DNA of 64,000 bases from Podarcis pityusensis (taxonomy: Eukaryota): NCBI GenBank assembly GCA_964106645.2, contig OZ067044.1. The stretch is one strand, 5' to 3'. Positions 2,621-59,443 of this stretch are shown one piece after another. Position 1 is the first letter of the stretch, and each line of letters opens with the position of its first letter. A program made the position numbers and the translations under genes. The notes beneath the pieces were generated by a model. It saw only the letters and a program-made list of their open reading frames with translations. It was not told where the DNA came from and did not search any database.

Positions 2621-3557
2621 CCGGCTTGGCCACTCTAGCAAAACAGGTAATGTTGTGCTTGACTGCTCCCAGTGGATTACATCCCACATGGAGGATTGCC
2701 ACAGCTCTGCCTTCCCAGCTGCAGCAGTACTGTTGCTCTCTAGGATTGGGAAAGGACAGTGTGATGTGGCCATGAGAGTGAGGGGAAGAACTGCTTTGGC
2801 AAATTTGAGTATTACCTGCTGCCTCCAACCTGATACTCTCCCACCACATCTCATCTTGGTCCCCCATAAGTGGCAGTCCTGCCACAACCAGGAGCACAAT
2901 GGTCCGTCTACACCCCATGAGTGCTCACAAGGTTGTTGTGCAGCAAGACTGGTCACTGGTCAGAGTTGTACTCAAGAAACATCTGGAGAGTTAGAGGGCC
3001 TGACCAAAATGAAAATGCGATGGGAAGACTAAGTTTCAAAGTGGGAAGGAGCTAGAGCCATTTTGGCAGTGCAATCCTATGTAGCTGGAAGTCATATTAT
3101 GTTCAGTAAGTATGTTAAAAATTGAGGCCTTTGTGAATAAGATTTTATCATTTCAAGGGCAAAGAAAACATACATAATTGCCTCAGATGCGCCAATTAAA
3201 GAAAAAAAGGGGTCACAACCAAGCACCTCGTAAACATCTCGTATCTTTCACATTTTGCTAGAATATAGATTTTTTAAAACACTGTAGTATTGACTTTGTT
3301 TTTGTTTTATTCACTGTGTGCCTGAACATCATTCCAAACCAATTTTCTTTTAATAGAACCTCAGCAGAGAAGTGTATATTTTCAGTGAAGTTCCTTCCTA
3401 TCTATTGCATCCAATTACAAAATTGCCCCATTTTGAGACCTTCACAAACAAAGTGTGTGGAGATGGTTACTGATAATTTGAGCTTGCAAAATGCAGCTGA
3501 GATAAAGGTCTGAAAACAGGCTGAAACACTGTGGTATCAGAGTTAAAGTAAACGTGG

Positions 3558-3641
3558 GAGCCTATACATGTCTACTCTGAAGTAAGCCAAATTGGATTCA
3601 ATGGCGCTTAATCCCAGGTAAGTGTTTACAGGGTTGCAGTC
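3558..3641. repeat. Short palindromic interspersed repeat, family B (MITE-like)
   Basis: cctatacatgtctactctgaagtaag...ttcaatgg...cccaggtaagtg...gggttgcag; further copies near 4798, 4891, 13709, 40618, 57513. Confidence 0.65.
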
Positions 3642-3913
3642 TACACAGGTGCTCTGACATTGAAATCCCATCTGTGTGTGAAATGCTGGAGGCAGGTAGA
3701 CTCAGTAATGCAGGAGGTATGAACAATGATCTTAAACCTTTGCTTCCCATTGACAATTGCCCAGTGTTCAGTGTTGCTATTTGGACGCTGGTTCCTATTG
3801 TACCAATAGGATCTTTCTTTCCAATACAAATAACAGTGAGAAGAGGGGACATCATGTGGGGACCATGAAAGGAAGAGAAAGGGTTAAATTCTTCCTTCCT
3901 ATCAGTCCCAAGC

Positions 3914-4306
3914 CTAATGAGGAAGAAGTGGTCAAGGAGATGGAAAAAGTGGGATCCTTGGGAGGAAGTAACCACATTCTCTTGGCATCCATTATACAGA
4001 GGAAAGGGAAAGGTTAGTGTAATTGAGCATACACTATGAATTTTAAGAAAGCTGATTTCAGAAAACCCAAGGAACTACAAAGTTAGACTCTATGGTAAGA
4101 GATACTCATAAATGGGTGCTCATGAGTGAGGTAAGAGTTGTTCAACAGTGGAACAGTTTACTTCAGAAGGCGGGTGGATTCTCCTTCATTGGAGGTTTTC
4201 AAACAGAGGTTGTATGGCCATCTGCCAGAGATTCTTTAGTTTGTGATTCCTGCGCAGACTAGATTACCACTGGAATCCCTTCCAGGTCCAAAGTTCTATG
4301 ACTCTA
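3914..4306 (+). mobile_element. Internally deleted CR1 LINE (endonuclease end joined to 3' end)
   Basis: NEEEVVKEMEKVGSLGGSNHILL resembles the CR1 APE C-terminal GxLGxSDH motif, followed by a FKKADF-coding stretch; from 4131 it matches the ORF2 end and ttctatgactcta tail. Confidence 0.8.
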
Positions 4307-25342: not shown

Positions 25343-25697
25343 AAGGTAAAGGTAAAGGTAAAGGACCCCTGGACGGTTAAGTCCAGTCAAAGGTAACTAT
25401 GGGGTGCTGCGCTCAGCTCGCTTCAGGACGAGGGAGCCAGCGTTTGTCCATAGACAGCTTTCCTGGCCATGTGTCTGACAAGGATTAAACCGCTACTGGC
25501 ACATAGAAACACCAATTTATCCACCACAGTGGTACCTATTTATCTACTTGCACTGGTGTGCTTTCAAACTGCTAGGTTGGCAGAAGCTGGGACAGAGCAA
25601 CAGGAGCTCACCCTATTGCATGGATTCAATCTGTCAACCTTCTGATCAGGAAGCCCAAGAAGCTCAGTGGTTTAGACCACAGCACCACCCACGTCCC
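25343..25697 (-). mobile_element. Sauria SINE
   Basis: (aaaggt)n tail, ggtacctatttatctacttgcac, ctttcaaactgctaggttggcag, head ...ccacagcaccacccacgtccc. Confidence 0.95.
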
Positions 25698-26939
25698 CTA
25701 AAAATAGCATTTGTCTTCAGTCATGATCATTCCACATTAATTCATTTTACTAGCTTTTAAAAAACTTCTGTTGAGCTTCATGACTCATACTTATCCATCC
25801 TGTTCTTATTCTTGTTTACTATTGACATACGATTGCCCTATGGCTCATGGAGATTTCACATCTTGTTCTTGCACCTTCTGCTGTATAGACTGACTCAACC
25901 CAGAGGCATATGGCTTGTGAGATTTAATCTGTGAAACGCATCTGACCTTGGGGGGGGGGGAAACCCTGTACAAATGGGTGCTAATAGACCAGCTTTAGCA
26001 ATTGGAAGTGAGATCACAGCTCATCAACCTGCATTAGAAATACACAGCACACACAAGTAAGGGAACAAGAAGTATAATTGTAGGGAGTATGAAACATAAA
26101 CTTCTCGAGAGACTTTCATATGAGAAGCACGTCATCCAGGAAAAATATTCTACCACTGTGCAAAATTTCATCCAAACATACCAAGGGGGATGAAGATAGG
26201 AGCAGGAGAAAAGTGTTTGGCTAAGGAAGAGGAATTAAAAAATGCAGTGTGCAGCAGTTCTTGGAGCAGGGGAAATCAAGTTTGCAACAACAGTCTTCAA
26301 AAGAATACTAATCCTATCCTTACATTTTACTATGCTGGACATCCTTCCCCACCCCCACCCCACTTCTGCAAGGACATCATCAAAAACACAGCTCCACTGC
26401 ATTCATGCCATTTTTTTAGCTCAAGACTTTCAACGCATAAAATTGCGACATGGCTTATTAGTATTTTTAGCATTTGGTCTGAACCACTGTGGCTATATAA
26501 TGTTGGCGTGTGTCAGCTATCATTAGCATCAGTTTGTTGACTGACACCTAACAAATCAATTTCAAGCACTCCTGATGGTAGTCAAAATTATACATGATGA
26601 TGTAATAAATAGCCCATCACCTTTGTGTCGCTTCTAGGCTAATTTTGGTAGTCAAATTGACCAGTGTTTGCAAGTAATGGCCAAGCACAACATTATAAGA
26701 AACGTGGGATTGTCAGGACTCTCTGTCTCCTCTCTCTTGTAATATCTATTACAAAACCATGCATGATACCACATCATGATATTGTGAATCTCCCCTGCTG
26801 TCAGAAGTAAAGAAGAGAATGGGAGAGATGGAGACACAGAACAATGAAATCACCTTTCCATTTTTGCTTCTGATTTTTACAGTCTTAAACTCAATTCACC
26901 ACATTTCCACATAGCGTGTTCTCCATAACAGAGAGCACG

Positions 26940-27727
26940 TGTTGTGGTTTGGGGAACAAGCCACCCTGCCTGTTACTGGGCAGATTTTGGGAGGAACCCA
27001 AGCCTTTAAGTAGTTAATTGGGTTGCTAGGGAGTTTTGATTGTTGCCAATTTGGAGGAGGGGTCAGAGTCTTTAAATACAGGACGCCCAACGTTGGGCGT
27101 CCTCTTGGCCATTTTGCATCAGATCACCCGCCCTCCCTCCCTTTAATAGGGTGGGTTTCTTGATCGCTTGACCTTGCTATGCCTGTCATGGGGTCGTCTG
27201 CCTTGGAGCGGGGGCCTGGTAGGAATTTTGCCATCTGGCTGATTGGCTGGTGCCATTTGGTTTTTGCCTACTGCGTAGCAAATCGTCACAACTTGTAAGG
27301 TTGGCGGTTAGGCATTGGTTAAATTGGTTCTTGGAGGGGTAAGTGCCTACCCCTCCAAATGGTGCGGAAAGGGAATTCCATTAAAGGAATCCAGGGGCTT
27401 GCCATTCTTTTCGTCCTTGTCCCTGGCATCAGACTTGGGCCGTGCAAGCCCCACAGGAACATGAGGGTGAGAAGTGAGGGACTGATGCCCAGCTTCATTT
27501 TCTCACCCAATACTTGTTTTCCACGCTGGCTTCCATTGGTGTCCAGAAGGCCAGCTCTGTCCCTGAGGGCAAGGACAGATAGTCATAACCAATGCCTAAG
27601 CAACCACTCACATTTTTTGTATTTTGAATAAAGTTGTGGCCAAAATTATGCCAAAAAACTTAAACAAAATTGATGTGTGAAGTGTGACTTTTTTGGTGGG
27701 TGGCATTGTGGGACTCAACACGCAACA
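26940..27727 (+). mobile_element. LTR-like element (probable solo LTR, Gypsy-like) with extensive inverted repeats
   Basis: Termini tgttgtg / cgcaaca; TATA-like tttaaata at 27071; AATAAA at 27627-27632; raised GC and CpG; no TSD found, so left end uncertain. Confidence 0.7.
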
Positions 27728-28773: not shown

Positions 28774-29160
28774 CTGAAAGGCAAAGGAAACTTGGCACAA
28801 CTTCTGATCAGTTCAATGGGGTTTGCATAGAAGAACTTCCTTGTGGATGATGACTGCTGCATTTTATTGTCAAAGTATATATATCAAAAGCCTCTAAACA
28901 CCCTTTTCTGCTTCAGAAAAACACGCAACCTGTGCTATTTTCTTTATCATTTCCCCATCACATTAGAATATGTGAGATTATTATTTTGAAAGTCCTGAAA
29001 AGCACACAGATGTGCTTGCAGTTCCTGATTTATATGGGGGAAAGCCCATATGTCTTCTCTTCATAGAGATCATCTCTTCCTAAAGTAGCTCCATTTCACA
29101 GATGACAATAACATGAGTAGAAGGCAAAGGTGCAAGTATTCCTATCTCTGGTCTGTACTA

Positions 29161-35705: not shown

Positions 35706-36972
35706 TGATTGTGAGTCCTGTGACAAGTTCAAAGTGAGTTTAAATGTGAATAGAACTTACATCTTTGGACTTATAGCCAGATTTCATTTCCCAGTTTGTA
35801 GCAGCTCAAACATTTGACTGTTGTTCTTTTAATTTATTGCAATAATCTCCGTAAGATAAATCATTTTTACAGAAGACCTTTTTTCACAAAGTTACTAGTA
35901 CTTTGGGGATTTAAAATATGTTTCCACATAAGGTTACTCAAGCTATTTTCACTTGTTTTCCAGCACTTATTTAGCACTTTCAGTTGAACATCAAAGGCAC
36001 CCAAAATGTGTCACATAGCATGTTACATATTTTCTCTTTTCAGTTATCAAATTCCTGCATGTTACTTTATCAGTATGCTTTTAATTTAAATATGGCATTA
36101 AAATTCACAGCTGTTTCAAGTGGAACATAAAGTCAGTTGAGAGGACAGATTTGTGGAATTTTGCAGAGAATTTCAAACACTCAGCTGTCATCGTGCCATC
36201 CTTTGCTTTTGATATAAATAACTTGCCTTTGGTACATAAGCCATTTAAAAAAAAAGAAAGAAAGAAAATGAAGATGATTGCACCGAAGAAAGCACTGTGT
36301 GCTCTTCAGAGTTATATGGGATGTTTTCCAATTGACAATATGGGAATGCTCTGACTCGGGCCAAGGAGTTTGTTGCTATGGGGAAATAAGGAAAGCGTCA
36401 TTTGATGTTGTTACACTTGGCAGACAAACTCAGGAACAGGGAGTGGGGGGTGCCTTCAAGCGGGTTTCGCTATCAATGGGAAAAGAAAAGTTCCTTCCTT
36501 GTTATCTTTCAGTCTTCTATTTGCTTATCAACTTTTCACAAGCACTTCCATAGCTATGAAAGAAATTTCACACGTTCATATCTCACAGTCAGTATTCCCC
36601 ACTGGAATCTACATGGACTATGCAGCCCAGTGTTGCTGTGATTTCTCACTCATGTGTGCCTGCACATCTGCATACCACCCAACTTTTTCAGATCCAAAAC
36701 AGGGACGCATGACCTTGCCTCAAGATCAAAATGAACTTGCCTCAAAAAAGTGCTTTATCGGGGTGAGATCTTGTGCAGCACCAAAATGTGTGTGTTTTGG
36801 GGCACCGTAGGAGATCATGGCCCTCCAAAAAGCACTTTTTTGGGGGGTGAGAGCGTGGCATGAGAGCACATCACCCAAAATGGCCACTGCAATCTCATGC
36901 AAAAAAAAACACCCAGGTGTCCTTTTTTTCCAGAAGACTTGGTGGGTATGCATTTGTGTCTGGTTAAAGATT

Positions 36973-37308
36973 GGGACACGGGTGGCGCTGTGGGTTAAAC
37001 CACAGAGCCTAGGACTTGCCGATCAATCGGAAGGTTGGAGGTTTGAATCCCCACAACGGGGTGAGCTCCTGTTGCTAGTTCCCTGCTCCTGCCAGCCTAG
37101 CAGTTCGAAAGCACGCCAAAGTGTAAGTAGATAAATAGATACCGCTCCATCGGGAAGGTAAACGGCGTTTCCGTGCACTGCTGTGGTTCGCCAGAAGCGG
37201 CTTAGTCATGCTGGCCACATGACCCGGAAGCTGTACGCCGGCTCCCTCGGCCAATAAAGCGAGATGAGCGCCGCATCCCCAGAGTTGGCCATGGGTCCCT
37301 TTACTTTT
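36973..37308 (+). mobile_element. Sauria SINE
   Basis: gggacacgggtggcgctgtgggttaaacc...gggtccctttac; small deletion near the 3' end relative to the 50917 copy. Confidence 0.95.
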
Positions 37309-49896: not shown

Positions 49897-50916
49897 TTTC
49901 ATTCTTTAGTTTCATTCTTTTTCATTCCAGAATCTAGCTCTCTTTCATGATACAAAGTGTTCCCATCCTGTTTGATATCTTTAAAAATGATACCGGGTAC
50001 CAGATTAAAGAACAAGGAATGTTGTACTCAGAGCTTGGAGAGTTCGTTTTAAACAGAAATCAGTTCCTACCTTAAGCTCAGTATGTCCAAATAGGAACTA
50101 ATTCCAGTTCATCTTCGTTTTTTTACAAAACAAACTAGTTTGGATCATGTTCAATTCAAGTTCATCTATATAGATCCTCAGCAATTTCCCCCCAGCATCT
50201 GAATATTACAAACTGTTGTGCTAAAGTATAAAATATAGTTAAGAAGACAAAGGAAACATCAAAATACACTCAGTGGAATTTGAATTGTTTAATTTATTTC
50301 CCCCAGCAATCATGATCTTTAAGTTTAAATTTCTGAAGCGTATAAAGAGTAAAAAAAAATGTGTAAGAGAATAAACTTGAAGATGAACTAAAAATCATTA
50401 AGAGTTCTAGCTTACCATTCAGCAAACCCGACAACTCTGGGAACTGCTTTCAGGTGTAGCTCAGAGATTTTTGAACTTTATTCCATGATCTTCATTAAAC
50501 TGAAAAGCCAGGGTAAAGAGGTGTAGCTTCTATTCAGGCTTTTATAGTAGCTCCATTGTAACGGTTTTGACCATTATATTGTAATTATTTTTCTATAATT
50601 TACTGTTTATTTTGTATCATTCTTTCATGGTTGTGAATGAACATTTCCATTTTTTCACCGTTTTTCACTTATTTTTAATGCAGTTTAAATTGAATTTCTT
50701 TTTGGTGCAGTTCTGGCTGTCTACACATATGCTCACTGTACAATGTATATAGATTGAATTGAGAACCCTTCCCCATCCCCAACAGAGAACACAGTGCATG
50801 AGGAGGGGAGATTTAACCCATATGTCTCCAGTTATGAAGACAATTGCAATATTTGATGTGACTTCAAGGAAAGGTATAGATAGTTTTTGAGAATTGTGCA
50901 ACAGTAATCATTAAGT

Positions 50917-51268
50917 GGGACACAGATGGTGCTGTGGGTTAAACCACAGAGCCTAGTGCTTGCCGATCAGAAGGTTGGCGGTTCGAATCCCCATGATGGG
51001 ATGAGCTCTTGTTGCTCGGTCCCTGCTCCTGCCAACCTAGCAGTTTGAAAGCATGTCAAAGTGCAAGTAGATAAATAGGTACCGCTTTGGCGGGAAGGTA
51101 AATAGTGTTTCCGTGTGCTGCTCTGGTTCACCAGAAGCAGCTTCATCATGCTGGCCACATGACCCGGAAGCTGTACGCCGGCTCCCTCGGCCAATAAAGC
51201 GAGATGAGTGCCGCAACCCCAGAGTCATCCGCAACTGGACCTAATGGTCAGGGGTCCCTTTACCTTTA
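50917..51268 (+). mobile_element. Full-length Sauria SINE
   Basis: gggacac head, ccctttaccttta tail; TSD taatcattaagtg at 50905-50917 and 51267-51279. Confidence 0.97.
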
Positions 51269-53919: not shown

Positions 53920-56599
53920 GAGGTGAGGAACTTATTTATATGACAGAAGAGGCAGTAAAAATATGACAAAATCCAATGAAGAATCAACCAAACAAACGTT
54001 ACAAGACATCAACACTGCAATATAGGAAGATACGAATAAAAGGAAGCCTCCCCAAGCATTTGTGGTGTTGTAAGAGATGCTGCTGCTTAGGCTTTTGCCA
54101 ACTGTGGCAGCTGCTTCATCTTGCCTCATGGGTGGGCCGGCCCTGGCTTTTAGAACAAGCATTTACCACACAAAAGTCCCACAATAGTTAGAAGTCCCAC
54201 TATGGTGACTTTACAAGGTCAAAATCAATGCAAGAATTATTCCTAAGGTTTATAGATGCTGAAGCAAGATATAGTGATATCAACACAACATAGTTTTGCT
54301 AGTATGGGAATGGAGTTAAATCTTCCCATTTGTTTGGCATACAGTGTTTATGTGATTGTTCAAAATGGCTGTATAACAATAGAAAAGCTGTTTCAAATTG
54401 GTTCATGGCCAAACCGAGCTACAACCCTATTTAAAAGTTCATAAACCAAAATGGCTTTCAGGGTCAAGTAGGCTTGACTTTTCCTAATCTTTTGGGTGAA
54501 TGATTAACTAAAGATCAATTCTGTTTCTTTGTTAGAAGCAGCTTGCTCACAAATGCTGCTTTCCCACAGCTATTTCTTCCATTTTCACCTTTCCTTACCT
54601 GGTTATTTTTGTGTTTTACATCACATGATGTAAAAGCCATTCCTGGAAATCTAGTGGGAGTCTGGTGTTCATTTTCACGTTAACTGCTTCCTGGGAGGGG
54701 GGAACGCTTTGCAACCCTGTTAACCCAGAAGAGCTTAGGGCAAAATTTGGGGTAGCATCCTGGCATACGGTTCCCTGCCCCTTAATTTTAGCAGAATATG
54801 CAAGTATATTGATCACGAAGCTACAATTTCATAATGACACTATGACAAAAGTGCCAGAATTATAATCAGGAAAACTAATGCAATAAGATCCAAGTCTGGA
54901 TGCACCCAGGAGGCTTTGATACACAATACTGTTATTCAAAAGTCAAATGCGGAATTCAGCATAGTACTAAGCAGATAACTCCATCAGCAGAAGGATTTCT
55001 GCTTGCCTGGTGGAAGAATCTGCTCTCTCCTCCCCCTACATGTTGTTCTAGAAGTTCTCCCACCCCAACCTCCTGAGTTAGAATAGCAAGAGGGTGCAAA
55101 AACAAGGGGGGGGGAAGCATTCCGAGTGCACTTTAAACCTTTTTACCATATGAAAACCCAAGGGGTATTATTTAATATGCTTGAATGTATGGTGCATTTT
55201 GTTACCATTCAGAACAGATGCCAAGGGTAGCAGGCCTGCTTAGCACAACATTGTGAAAAAGATTCTGTTACTTGGTTACCCAAGTTTATCATTCGAATGA
55301 GTCATGCTGCCATTTACAATGGTTCGAATATTTCTTGTAAAATGTATAAGAAGTAATTTGCTTGAAATTTCAAAGAAGCACACACTGATGTTCACAGAGA
55401 TTCAACAAACTACGCTGATGAAAGAAATCCTGTTTCCTTACATAAAAAGAACCCTATGGGAGAAAGAGAGGCAGTTTATTTACACAAAAATCAAAGCAAT
55501 TTTGGCATGCACTGAGGCTGAATATATAGCTCTTGGGGAACTAAAAAAGCGGACTCTGGATTTCTAGATGGAAAAAAATAAAGCAGAATAAGCATAAATT
55601 CATTTGACCAGCAGGCCTTTTAGAAAGTATATTTATATTAGTGTATGTGGATCAGGTCACCATTTTACAGGAATGAGTACTACCTGCTCTAGACATGGTT
55701 GCCTTCTCCCTTAAAAAAAACTTGGAAGCATTCCTACAGCTAGCTTTGTCTCTAGAGGTTCAAGTGGTCTCAATGGCTTGGTGTACTTTTGGCCAACTTT
55801 CTTGGTCCCTCATGTACCATGTGTCACTAGTAGTCATGTGAATATTATGGAAATTGTCAATGCTATTTTTCTGAAGACAGAGGTGCCAGAACTCACCATG
55901 AACACCTCCCTTGTTCTGTTATAATGGCAATGGCATCCACCTGAGAAGTGCCAGAACTGAATTTCGGTGTGTTCTGGCTGAAAAAAAGGCCCTGGATGTT
56001 GTAAATAGAAGGTGTTGGTGGGTGAATTGACCCTTTCTTCCTTCACCATGGTCTTCACAAAAATCCACAGTCCCTCAAAACTGCTATGAGCCTCAGGAGG
56101 GAAGTTTCTGTTGTCAACAATGGAAGCTTTCCTCCCAAGCAGTAGCAGCCAGTAGGAGGGGTGCAGGTGGGGCTGCTTTGCTGACCTGCCTCCCCAGTGC
56201 TGCACGTCACTGTTGCTTACCATAAGGGGGAGAGGAAAGGCAGCAGGAGCCTATCGTGGTCCTTGTCCAGAAGGAGCCAATCTGATGTTCGCTCACTGTG
56301 CCCACACTATGTCCACACCACACTGGCTTTCCACTGACTTACCCCTCTCCTTCTCCTTCTCAGGAAGTGGCAGCACTGCACAGCGCTGGCAAAGCAGGTC
56401 AGTTTACACAGACCCACTCACACTGCCCAACTGGCTGCTACTACTCCCAAGGCTAAGAACACTCGGTGTATGATATTTGACAGGAACATAGTGTAGGGGA
56501 CTATGTGCCACAGTCTTGATTGCCACCACTTCCCTCATGGTGCTTTGTAAGTTTGAGAAGGCTCACACATCTACAAGTTTAGCATTTTGTAAACTGCGA

Positions 56600-59273: not shown

Positions 59274-59443
59274 AAGGTAAAAGGTAAAGGTAAAGGACCC
59301 ATGGGCGGTTAAGTCCAAGCAAAGGCAACTGTGGGGTGCGGTGCTCATCTCAATTTTCAGGCTGAGGGAGTCAGCGTTTGTCCACAGACAGCTTTCCAGG
59401 TCATGTGGCCAGCATGACGAAACCGCTTCTGGTGCAATGGAAA
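59274..59443 (-). mobile_element. Sauria SINE, 3' half
   Basis: (aaaggt)n tail and gtttgtccacagacagctttccaggtcatgtggccagcatgac. Confidence 0.9.

Follow-up and report, generated by a model that had tools for sequence, protein, structure and literature searches.

Vertebrate Ngaro elements with the layout found in this work have already been described, as far as the parts of both accounts considered here extend (bioRxiv 10.1101/2021.08.05.455354; PMC4157794). The Xenopus element DIRS-53_XT, like the Podarcis elements, is organized as A1-ORFs-B1-A2-B2, encodes gag, reverse transcriptase (RT), tyrosine recombinase (YR) and SGNH hydrolase and possesses identical repeat pairs; it differs in its B repeat, which is 152 nt long versus ~420 nt in the Podarcis element, and the considered parts of its description mention neither RNA structure nor a conserved spacer (bioRxiv 10.1101/2021.08.05.455354). 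Isolated A+B copies scattered in the genome, as observed here, are represented by the solo AB repeats of Cafeteria Ngaro elements, which were ascribed to recombination (PMC8547959, in part); the Podarcis case differs in that a young solo group has no close full-length partner among the scored matches and in that the unit contains a covarying fold. For DIRS-type elements no primer has been identified, a 3' hairpin having been suggested (PMC7192593, in part). DIRS-1 resembles the present element as a tyrosine-recombinase retrotransposon with non-coding 3' signals and an unknown primer, but its ICR is an inverted complement of the ends and the suggested priming hairpin has 14 nt, whereas here a ~290-nt multibranch domain lies inside a direct repeat (PMC7192593, in part).

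The window, i.e., the whole stretch of 64,000 nucleotides of Podarcis pityusensis DNA that was analyzed, contains an 813-bp element which, judging by the ends of its copies and the layout of its full-length relatives, is a solo A-spacer-B unit of a Ngaro tyrosine-recombinase retrotransposon. The window copy is slightly decayed. The following parts were recognized in it:

26913-27725, plus strand: solo A-spacer-B unit, the ends of which are common to 29 other copies; it has no target-site duplication and matches A2-spacer-B2 of full elements.
26913-27126, plus strand: A repeat (A1 = A2 in full elements), which carries the promoter-like region and is found 5' of gag and again after B1 in 6/6 full elements.
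27071-27078, plus strand: TATA-like box, TTTAAATA; an AT-rich box stands at the matching place in the aligned families (alignment of 21 sequences).
27127-27301, plus strand: spacer between A2 and B2, conserved and structured (alignment of 21 sequences).
27302-27725, plus strand: B repeat (B1 = B2), which begins 4-11 nt 5' of the closing-helix core in 71/71 rows.
27627-27640, plus strand: AATAAA plus the invariant 8 nt behind it, exact in 25/27 families.
27719-27725, plus strand: right end, equivalent to the B/A junction of full elements and a putative recombinase site, as indicated by the shared copy ends and the alignment.

We infer a transcription start near 27100. The first ~35 nt of A (26913-26950) form a hairpin adjoining the B/A junction, with a stem changed on both sides between clades; a role in the recombinase site or as a cDNA signal is possible.

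The initial annotation had placed the fold in an LTR-like element; what carries it is the B repeat of a Ngaro split-direct-repeat element, without target-site duplication. Instead of TG...CA ends flanked by a 4-6 bp duplication, the unit has the ends AGCG...GCAA and a shared AA: it is found just before the left end in 25 of 29 copies and also makes up the last two bases of the right end. Neither does the whole unit stand at both ends of an integrase-coding element, as its repeats are split and the recombinase is of the tyrosine type. A Gypsy/ERV solo LTR with a CpG-decayed 4-bp duplication is ruled out by the true ends of the copies.

Full-length relatives were studied at six loci (10 kb each), chosen because the sequence of 27302-27725 occurs there directly upstream of a whole copy; a seventh such stretch was a solo beside an inverted distant copy. 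All six exhibited the order A1, long leader, four ORFs, B1, A2, 175-nt spacer and B2, the ORFs being gag, RT, YR and SGNH hydrolase. The RT ORF matched RVT_1 (E 1.8e-12), and the hydrolase ORF, which follows YR, matched Lipase_GDSL_2 (E 5.6e-6; GDSL/SGNH hydrolase). The YR ORF matched Phage_integrase (E 0.0024) and a SAM-like domain (E 0.0017), both below the curated cut-offs, and gag, the first ORF, gave a weak zinc-finger match. At E 0.1 none of the four ORFs matched a methyltransferase family. Among named sequences, the proteins are closest to those of wall lizards. The leader (2712-3950 at one locus, L031) comprises 1.2-1.8 kb of AT-rich and GC-rich blocks and, unlike the 3' tail, is unalignable between families; it may hold an intron. 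At another locus (L036:99-2513, element orientation), an 805-aa open frame, presumably of a LINE endonuclease/RT given its motif, ends at the left end of the Ngaro element, which may have been inserted into a LINE.

Among 127 distinct hydrolase-anchored loci, 69 end with B1-A2-spacer-B2, 55 stop after B1 (53 of them with a recognizable end motif) and three are broken; in two groups of loci (L088-L095 and L130-L139) all fetched members end after B1, without the A2-spacer-B2 tail. Among the 40 scored of 3824 candidates, the 25 best matches to a young solo are themselves solos (96-100% identity) and the nearest full elements reach at most 93%. A tree built from 27 solos and 24 full tails places the solos on short branches near its centre, none of them pairing with a full family. 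Recombination followed by loss of the master element and direct mobilization of the short unit both fit these sequence relationships. Some copies have relatives nearby: at L037 (G000:C9:68970300-68980299), as also at L008, a solo and an inverted copy from a 75% related family lie ~15 bp apart, and L004, L020 and L026 have 74-77% relatives within 1.5 kb; clustered insertion may explain the 4 of 29 loci of this kind. A large proportion of the old, divergent Ngaro hydrolase copies is found on contig C19 (38 Mb) of the same assembly (G000); this contig may be a non-recombining sex chromosome. Other dispersed repeats of the window (36972-37285, 50916-51225, 25348-25697 and 59280-59407) resemble Sauria SINE.

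The fold itself was confirmed. The helices of 14, 11, 9, 9 and 7 bp proposed in the initial annotation (27308-27321/27586-27599, 27331-27341/27348-27358, 27394-27402/27444-27452, 27465-27473/27500-27508 and 27556-27562/27573-27579) are perfect Watson-Crick helices, and 27525-27533/27546-27555 pairs with one bulge. The 292 nt of 27308-27599 fold at -126.9 kcal/mol (z -5.73), an energy attained by 0/200 dinucleotide shuffles and far better than theirs. Since the reverse strand folds as well (z -6.89), energy alone does not give the strand. The assertion that no other part is as dense in helices holds by a small raw margin: among 437 windows of 292 nt in the 64 kb, the lowest energy belongs to the one at 27303 (-116.5), followed by -113.2 at 56065. 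The domain does lie between the TATA-like box (27071) and AATAAA (27627), both of which are conserved. Comparison of copies refined its architecture as follows:

27308-27599, plus strand: folded domain closed by P1 (27308-27321/27586-27599), filling the 5' part of B and starting 6 nt inside it.
27331-27358, plus strand: P2 hairpin, with a double change in 3/11 pairs.
27371-27522, plus strand: four-way junction (RNAalifold), closed by Pj (27371-27375/27518-27522) and holding P3, P4 and P5; absent from the initial list.
27376-27389, plus strand: P3 hairpin with a G-N-U-A-R-A loop (GUUAAA type), a motif present in 27/27 distinct families; likewise absent from the initial list.
27390-27458, plus strand: P4 arm with 27394-27402/27444-27452, the invariant 27413-27416/27437-27440 and the apical 27419-27422/27431-27434; double changes in the lower and apical stems.
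27465-27508, plus strand: P5 arm; its apical stem is 27482-27484/27490-27492 and its loop varies (alignment of 22 sequences).
27525-27579, plus strand: P6 and P7 hairpins, P6 being variable, and absent or rearranged in distant families.

P1 is all but invariant, with no variation at 11 of 13 pairs among 22 sequences, and is therefore uninformative for covariation. The invariant helix of P4 includes a U-G pair. In P3 the window copy has a private G>A at 27380, by which the first G of the loop is lost. Pj has 3 of 6 pairs changed on both sides in the distant alignment (RNAalifold), and in 14 of 27 rows the best complement of its 5' strand is found 120-130 nt away and changes together with that strand; in single-sequence folding Pj is weak, reaching a probability of at least 0.6 in 3/27 rows.

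Searches with four hydrolases yielded 132 fetched loci with 40-100% protein identity. Four anchors (the closing helix 5' and 3', the hexaloop hairpin and the AATAAA block) were all present in 113 of them, and 15 more lacked only the strict hexaloop; the layout persists down to 40% hydrolase identity. Among 22 nearer-clade sequences (3 of 25 were left out for internal duplications), from which the structure itself was derived, the nested helices were paired in 92.8% of cells versus 33-54% in slid controls. In raw counts, uncorrected for kinship and drawn from one genome, 18 of 85 pairs were double-changed, a value reached by 0/500 shuffles; 9 of these 85 pairs (P3 lower stem, P5 base) were probably mis-assigned and are replaced by Pj. 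Covariation across copies, proposed earlier as a check of the fold, was thus obtained for the nested helices. RNAalifold analysis of 12 distant copies (2 of 14 were left out, one broken and one poorly aligned) gave a matching layout with 18 of 89 pairs double-changed, counted in the same raw manner. Of 13 families folded against 20 shuffles each, 11 had z of -2.4 or lower and one had -1.5, the remaining one being mis-anchored. G-U cells outnumbered A-C cells (131 vs 41) in the plus-strand reading, which favors the plus strand as RNA. Between families, B is conserved at ~92% identity, as against 83% for the coding part, and the leaders cannot be aligned. Taken together, these comparisons indicate that the stretch is a real, conserved and selected RNA structure in a known element; the earlier proposal of a functional structured RNA stands in this respect, but its kissing loop and LTR setting fail. 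Related hydrolases occur in other lizards and in a toad; a 23-base pattern gave 0 matches in metagenome and viral contigs, and hence the fold is documented for one genome.

The kissing loop had been proposed between 27425-27432 and 27482-27489. In the window copy these 8-nt strands are exactly complementary, but they lie partly in conserved apical stems (27431-27432 and 27482-27484) rather than wholly in loops, and the complementarity is not conserved across copies: 66.9% of cells are paired (22 sequences), with covariation no better than in shuffles (298/500), and sister-clade copies keep 2-5 of the 8 pairs. A perfect kiss requires A at 27431, which occurs in 0/29 close copies (all have G; nine have the version with one G-U) and which also breaks an apical stem pair. 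The kiss is a subfamily coincidence completed by decay of the window copy, and on account of the pairing level, the covariation and the private A it was rejected as a family feature.

Beyond the domain, further pairing engages the sequences on either side of it through two strands:

27299-27303, plus strand: 5' strand of the outer helix P0 in the solo/B2 setting, pairing with 27601-27605; both strands differ between clades.
27285-27292, plus strand: spacer strand able to pair with the 8 nt immediately following AATAAA (27633-27640); missing from the initial list.

In B1 it is the end of the hydrolase gene that pairs with 27601-27612, and in B2 the spacer end pairs with 27601-27605. P0 is thus rebuilt from unrelated upstream sequence in the two settings, and both copies of the fold look selected. 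The strands 27285-27292 and 27633-27640 are both exact in 70 of the 71 full-length rows with both anchors (of 72) and, being invariant, provide no covariation. The spacer also contains the helices 27174-27179/27276-27281 and 27219-27223/27267-27271, the latter changed on both sides in one family (L149). The predicted short transcript (27100-27665) folds with z -3.98. A pseudoknot between the P2 loop (27344-27347) and the leader (27303-27306) is a candidate only, with 90% of cells paired in the 12 distant copies and no double change, as compared with 79% for a slid version. No support was obtained for a contact between the P3 loop and the tail that follows AATAAA: five pairs form in 6 of the 12 distant copies, are broken in the other six and are poor in the window clade. 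Apart from P0, the short unit showed no long antisense match to other parts of the element.

Rfam gave no match at the gathering score over the fold or over five distant relatives, in agreement with the initial statement that the fold could not be assigned to a known family. No tRNA was found either. Of the functions listed at first, an IRES-like one is unlikely because no ORF follows the fold. The fold is not described in the literature searched, to which neither the founding Ngaro papers nor the repeat databases belonged. Elsewhere in the window, 28803-28866 matched the Rfam fluoride riboswitch with 24.2 bits (E 0.0009; gathering score 34), probably by chance in a vertebrate.

In four RNA runs with 90-126 aligned reads each, reads at least 99% alike to the window copy numbered 4/126, 5/90, 1/113 and 0/125, so that the reads over the element come mostly from its relatives. 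Two bulk runs displayed one-directional coverage over most of the fold, falling after 27685, which is consistent with sense RNA if the libraries are of the usual stranded kind. Two reads in one run join the end of B to the start of A, and no sharp read ends were seen at this low depth (90-126 reads per run). The reads neither show nor exclude transcription of the window solo copy.

With respect to function, we tentatively favor the reading in which the fold would be an RNA signal bound by the element's own Gag and RT, serving packaging and the start of copying. The fold would then stand at the 3' end of every RNA that terminates at the poly(A) signal of a B repeat, namely the mRNA that stops in B1, the read-through transcript that stops in B2 and a short RNA of ~560 nt made from A2 or a solo. 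The long outer helices would hold the 3' end beside the 5' edge of B, and the four-way junction with the conserved hexaloop would form a protein-binding core, replacing the tRNA primer site that is absent from these elements. Structured RNA signals that recruit RT are exemplified by hepadnavirus epsilon, retron msr-msd and the 3' tails of LINE/R2 elements; epsilon lies in a terminal redundancy, and the retron RNA is closed by a long terminal helix. The proposed fold would resemble them, by analogy only, as a structured RNA recruiting its cognate RT without a tRNA primer. The reading is suggested by the position in a terminal redundancy, the B edge at the base of the fold, the selection in both settings, the partnerless solos and the absence of a known primer. 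The narrow range of distances (4-11 nt) between the B edge and the closing helix would result if copying began or ended at the fold; a fixed edge follows equally if the fold is merely needed twice. The predominance of solos among the closest matches to the young solo agrees with a unit composed almost entirely of this RNA being mobilized in trans, but solos and halves with B1 only are also explained by repeat recombination, as in Cafeteria (PMC8547959, in part), or by a lost master.

It is possible, though on balance unlikely, that the fold faces the host as a post-transcriptional element, acting in the export of unspliced RNA (like the musD MTE or the retroviral CTE), in 3'-end protection or in the choice between the B1 and B2 poly(A) signals. 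It sits after the last ORF and before AATAAA, and its size is like that of known transport elements (PMC5767303, in part). The musD MTE is likewise a large structured cis-element of a retrotransposon; it differs, however, in requiring a kissing pair and in being single-copy in an LTR element (PMC5767303, in part), whereas the fold has no MTE-like kissing pair. As regards poly(A) choice, the first bases of AATAAA in B1 form covarying pairs with the end of the hydrolase gene in the distant clades, and the bases just behind AATAAA pair with the spacer in B2. The window clade, however, lacks the pairing into AATAAA, and opening AATAAA costs more in B2 than in B1 in 12/12 computed rows of the window and sister clades (L069 gave no value), as against more in B1 in only 6/11 distant rows. 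A poly(A) occlusion switch between B1 and B2 was rejected for this inconsistent direction of opening costs between clades.

We regard as distinctly unlikely a stronger version of the Gag and RT signal, in which the A2-spacer-B2 tail would be a small gene for a ~560-nt structured primer RNA and the same unit would move alone as a non-coding mini-element. The four-way-junction core would then bind RT, first-strand synthesis would need no tRNA and would begin at the 5' edge of B, and B2 would be rebuilt from B1 in every cycle.

A new self-cleaving or self-ligating ribozyme, cutting B1 and B2 alike and releasing a B-A-spacer monomer as retrozymes do, appears very unlikely. The invariant unpaired and wobble positions, the four-way junction, the candidate pseudoknot, the tandem occurrence of the fold and the unit length of the solos would be in keeping with it. 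Against it are the absence of an Rfam match and, at the low depth of 90-126 reads per run, of a pile-up of read starts or ends and the finding of hammerhead, hairpin and pistol core motifs in 0/27 families; a loose twister pattern, uninformative in itself, was present in 10/27. Still less credit is given to a structure that would act on single-stranded cDNA, in end restoration or circle formation, rather than on RNA: DIRS-1 does make single-stranded cDNA (PMC7192593, in part) and the minus strand folds equally well, but the threefold excess of plus-strand G-U over A-C, the invariant U-G included, would be read as mismatches by the minus strand. The least credible reading is that of no function, i.e., slippage-made hairpins carried in a homogenized repeat, which would account for the variation of P6, P7 and the P2 loop by local duplications and for the uninformative invariance of P1, but not for the covariation of the long-range helices Pj and P0 or for a non-coding fold better conserved than the ORFs.

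Returning to the favored packaging and RT signal, the element class and its solo units are already known; the fold is, within the literature searched, a variant without prior description, and its function is a prediction from sequence. Many lizard 'solo LTRs' are likely mis-annotated, an error that the finding sets right. How tyrosine-recombinase retrotransposons begin reverse transcription and select their RNA is an open question (PMC7192593, in part). A bounded, covariation-supported RNA domain with named conserved positions is now available in abundant young vertebrate families, and the question of the primer and of RNA selection thereby becomes testable on RNA alone.
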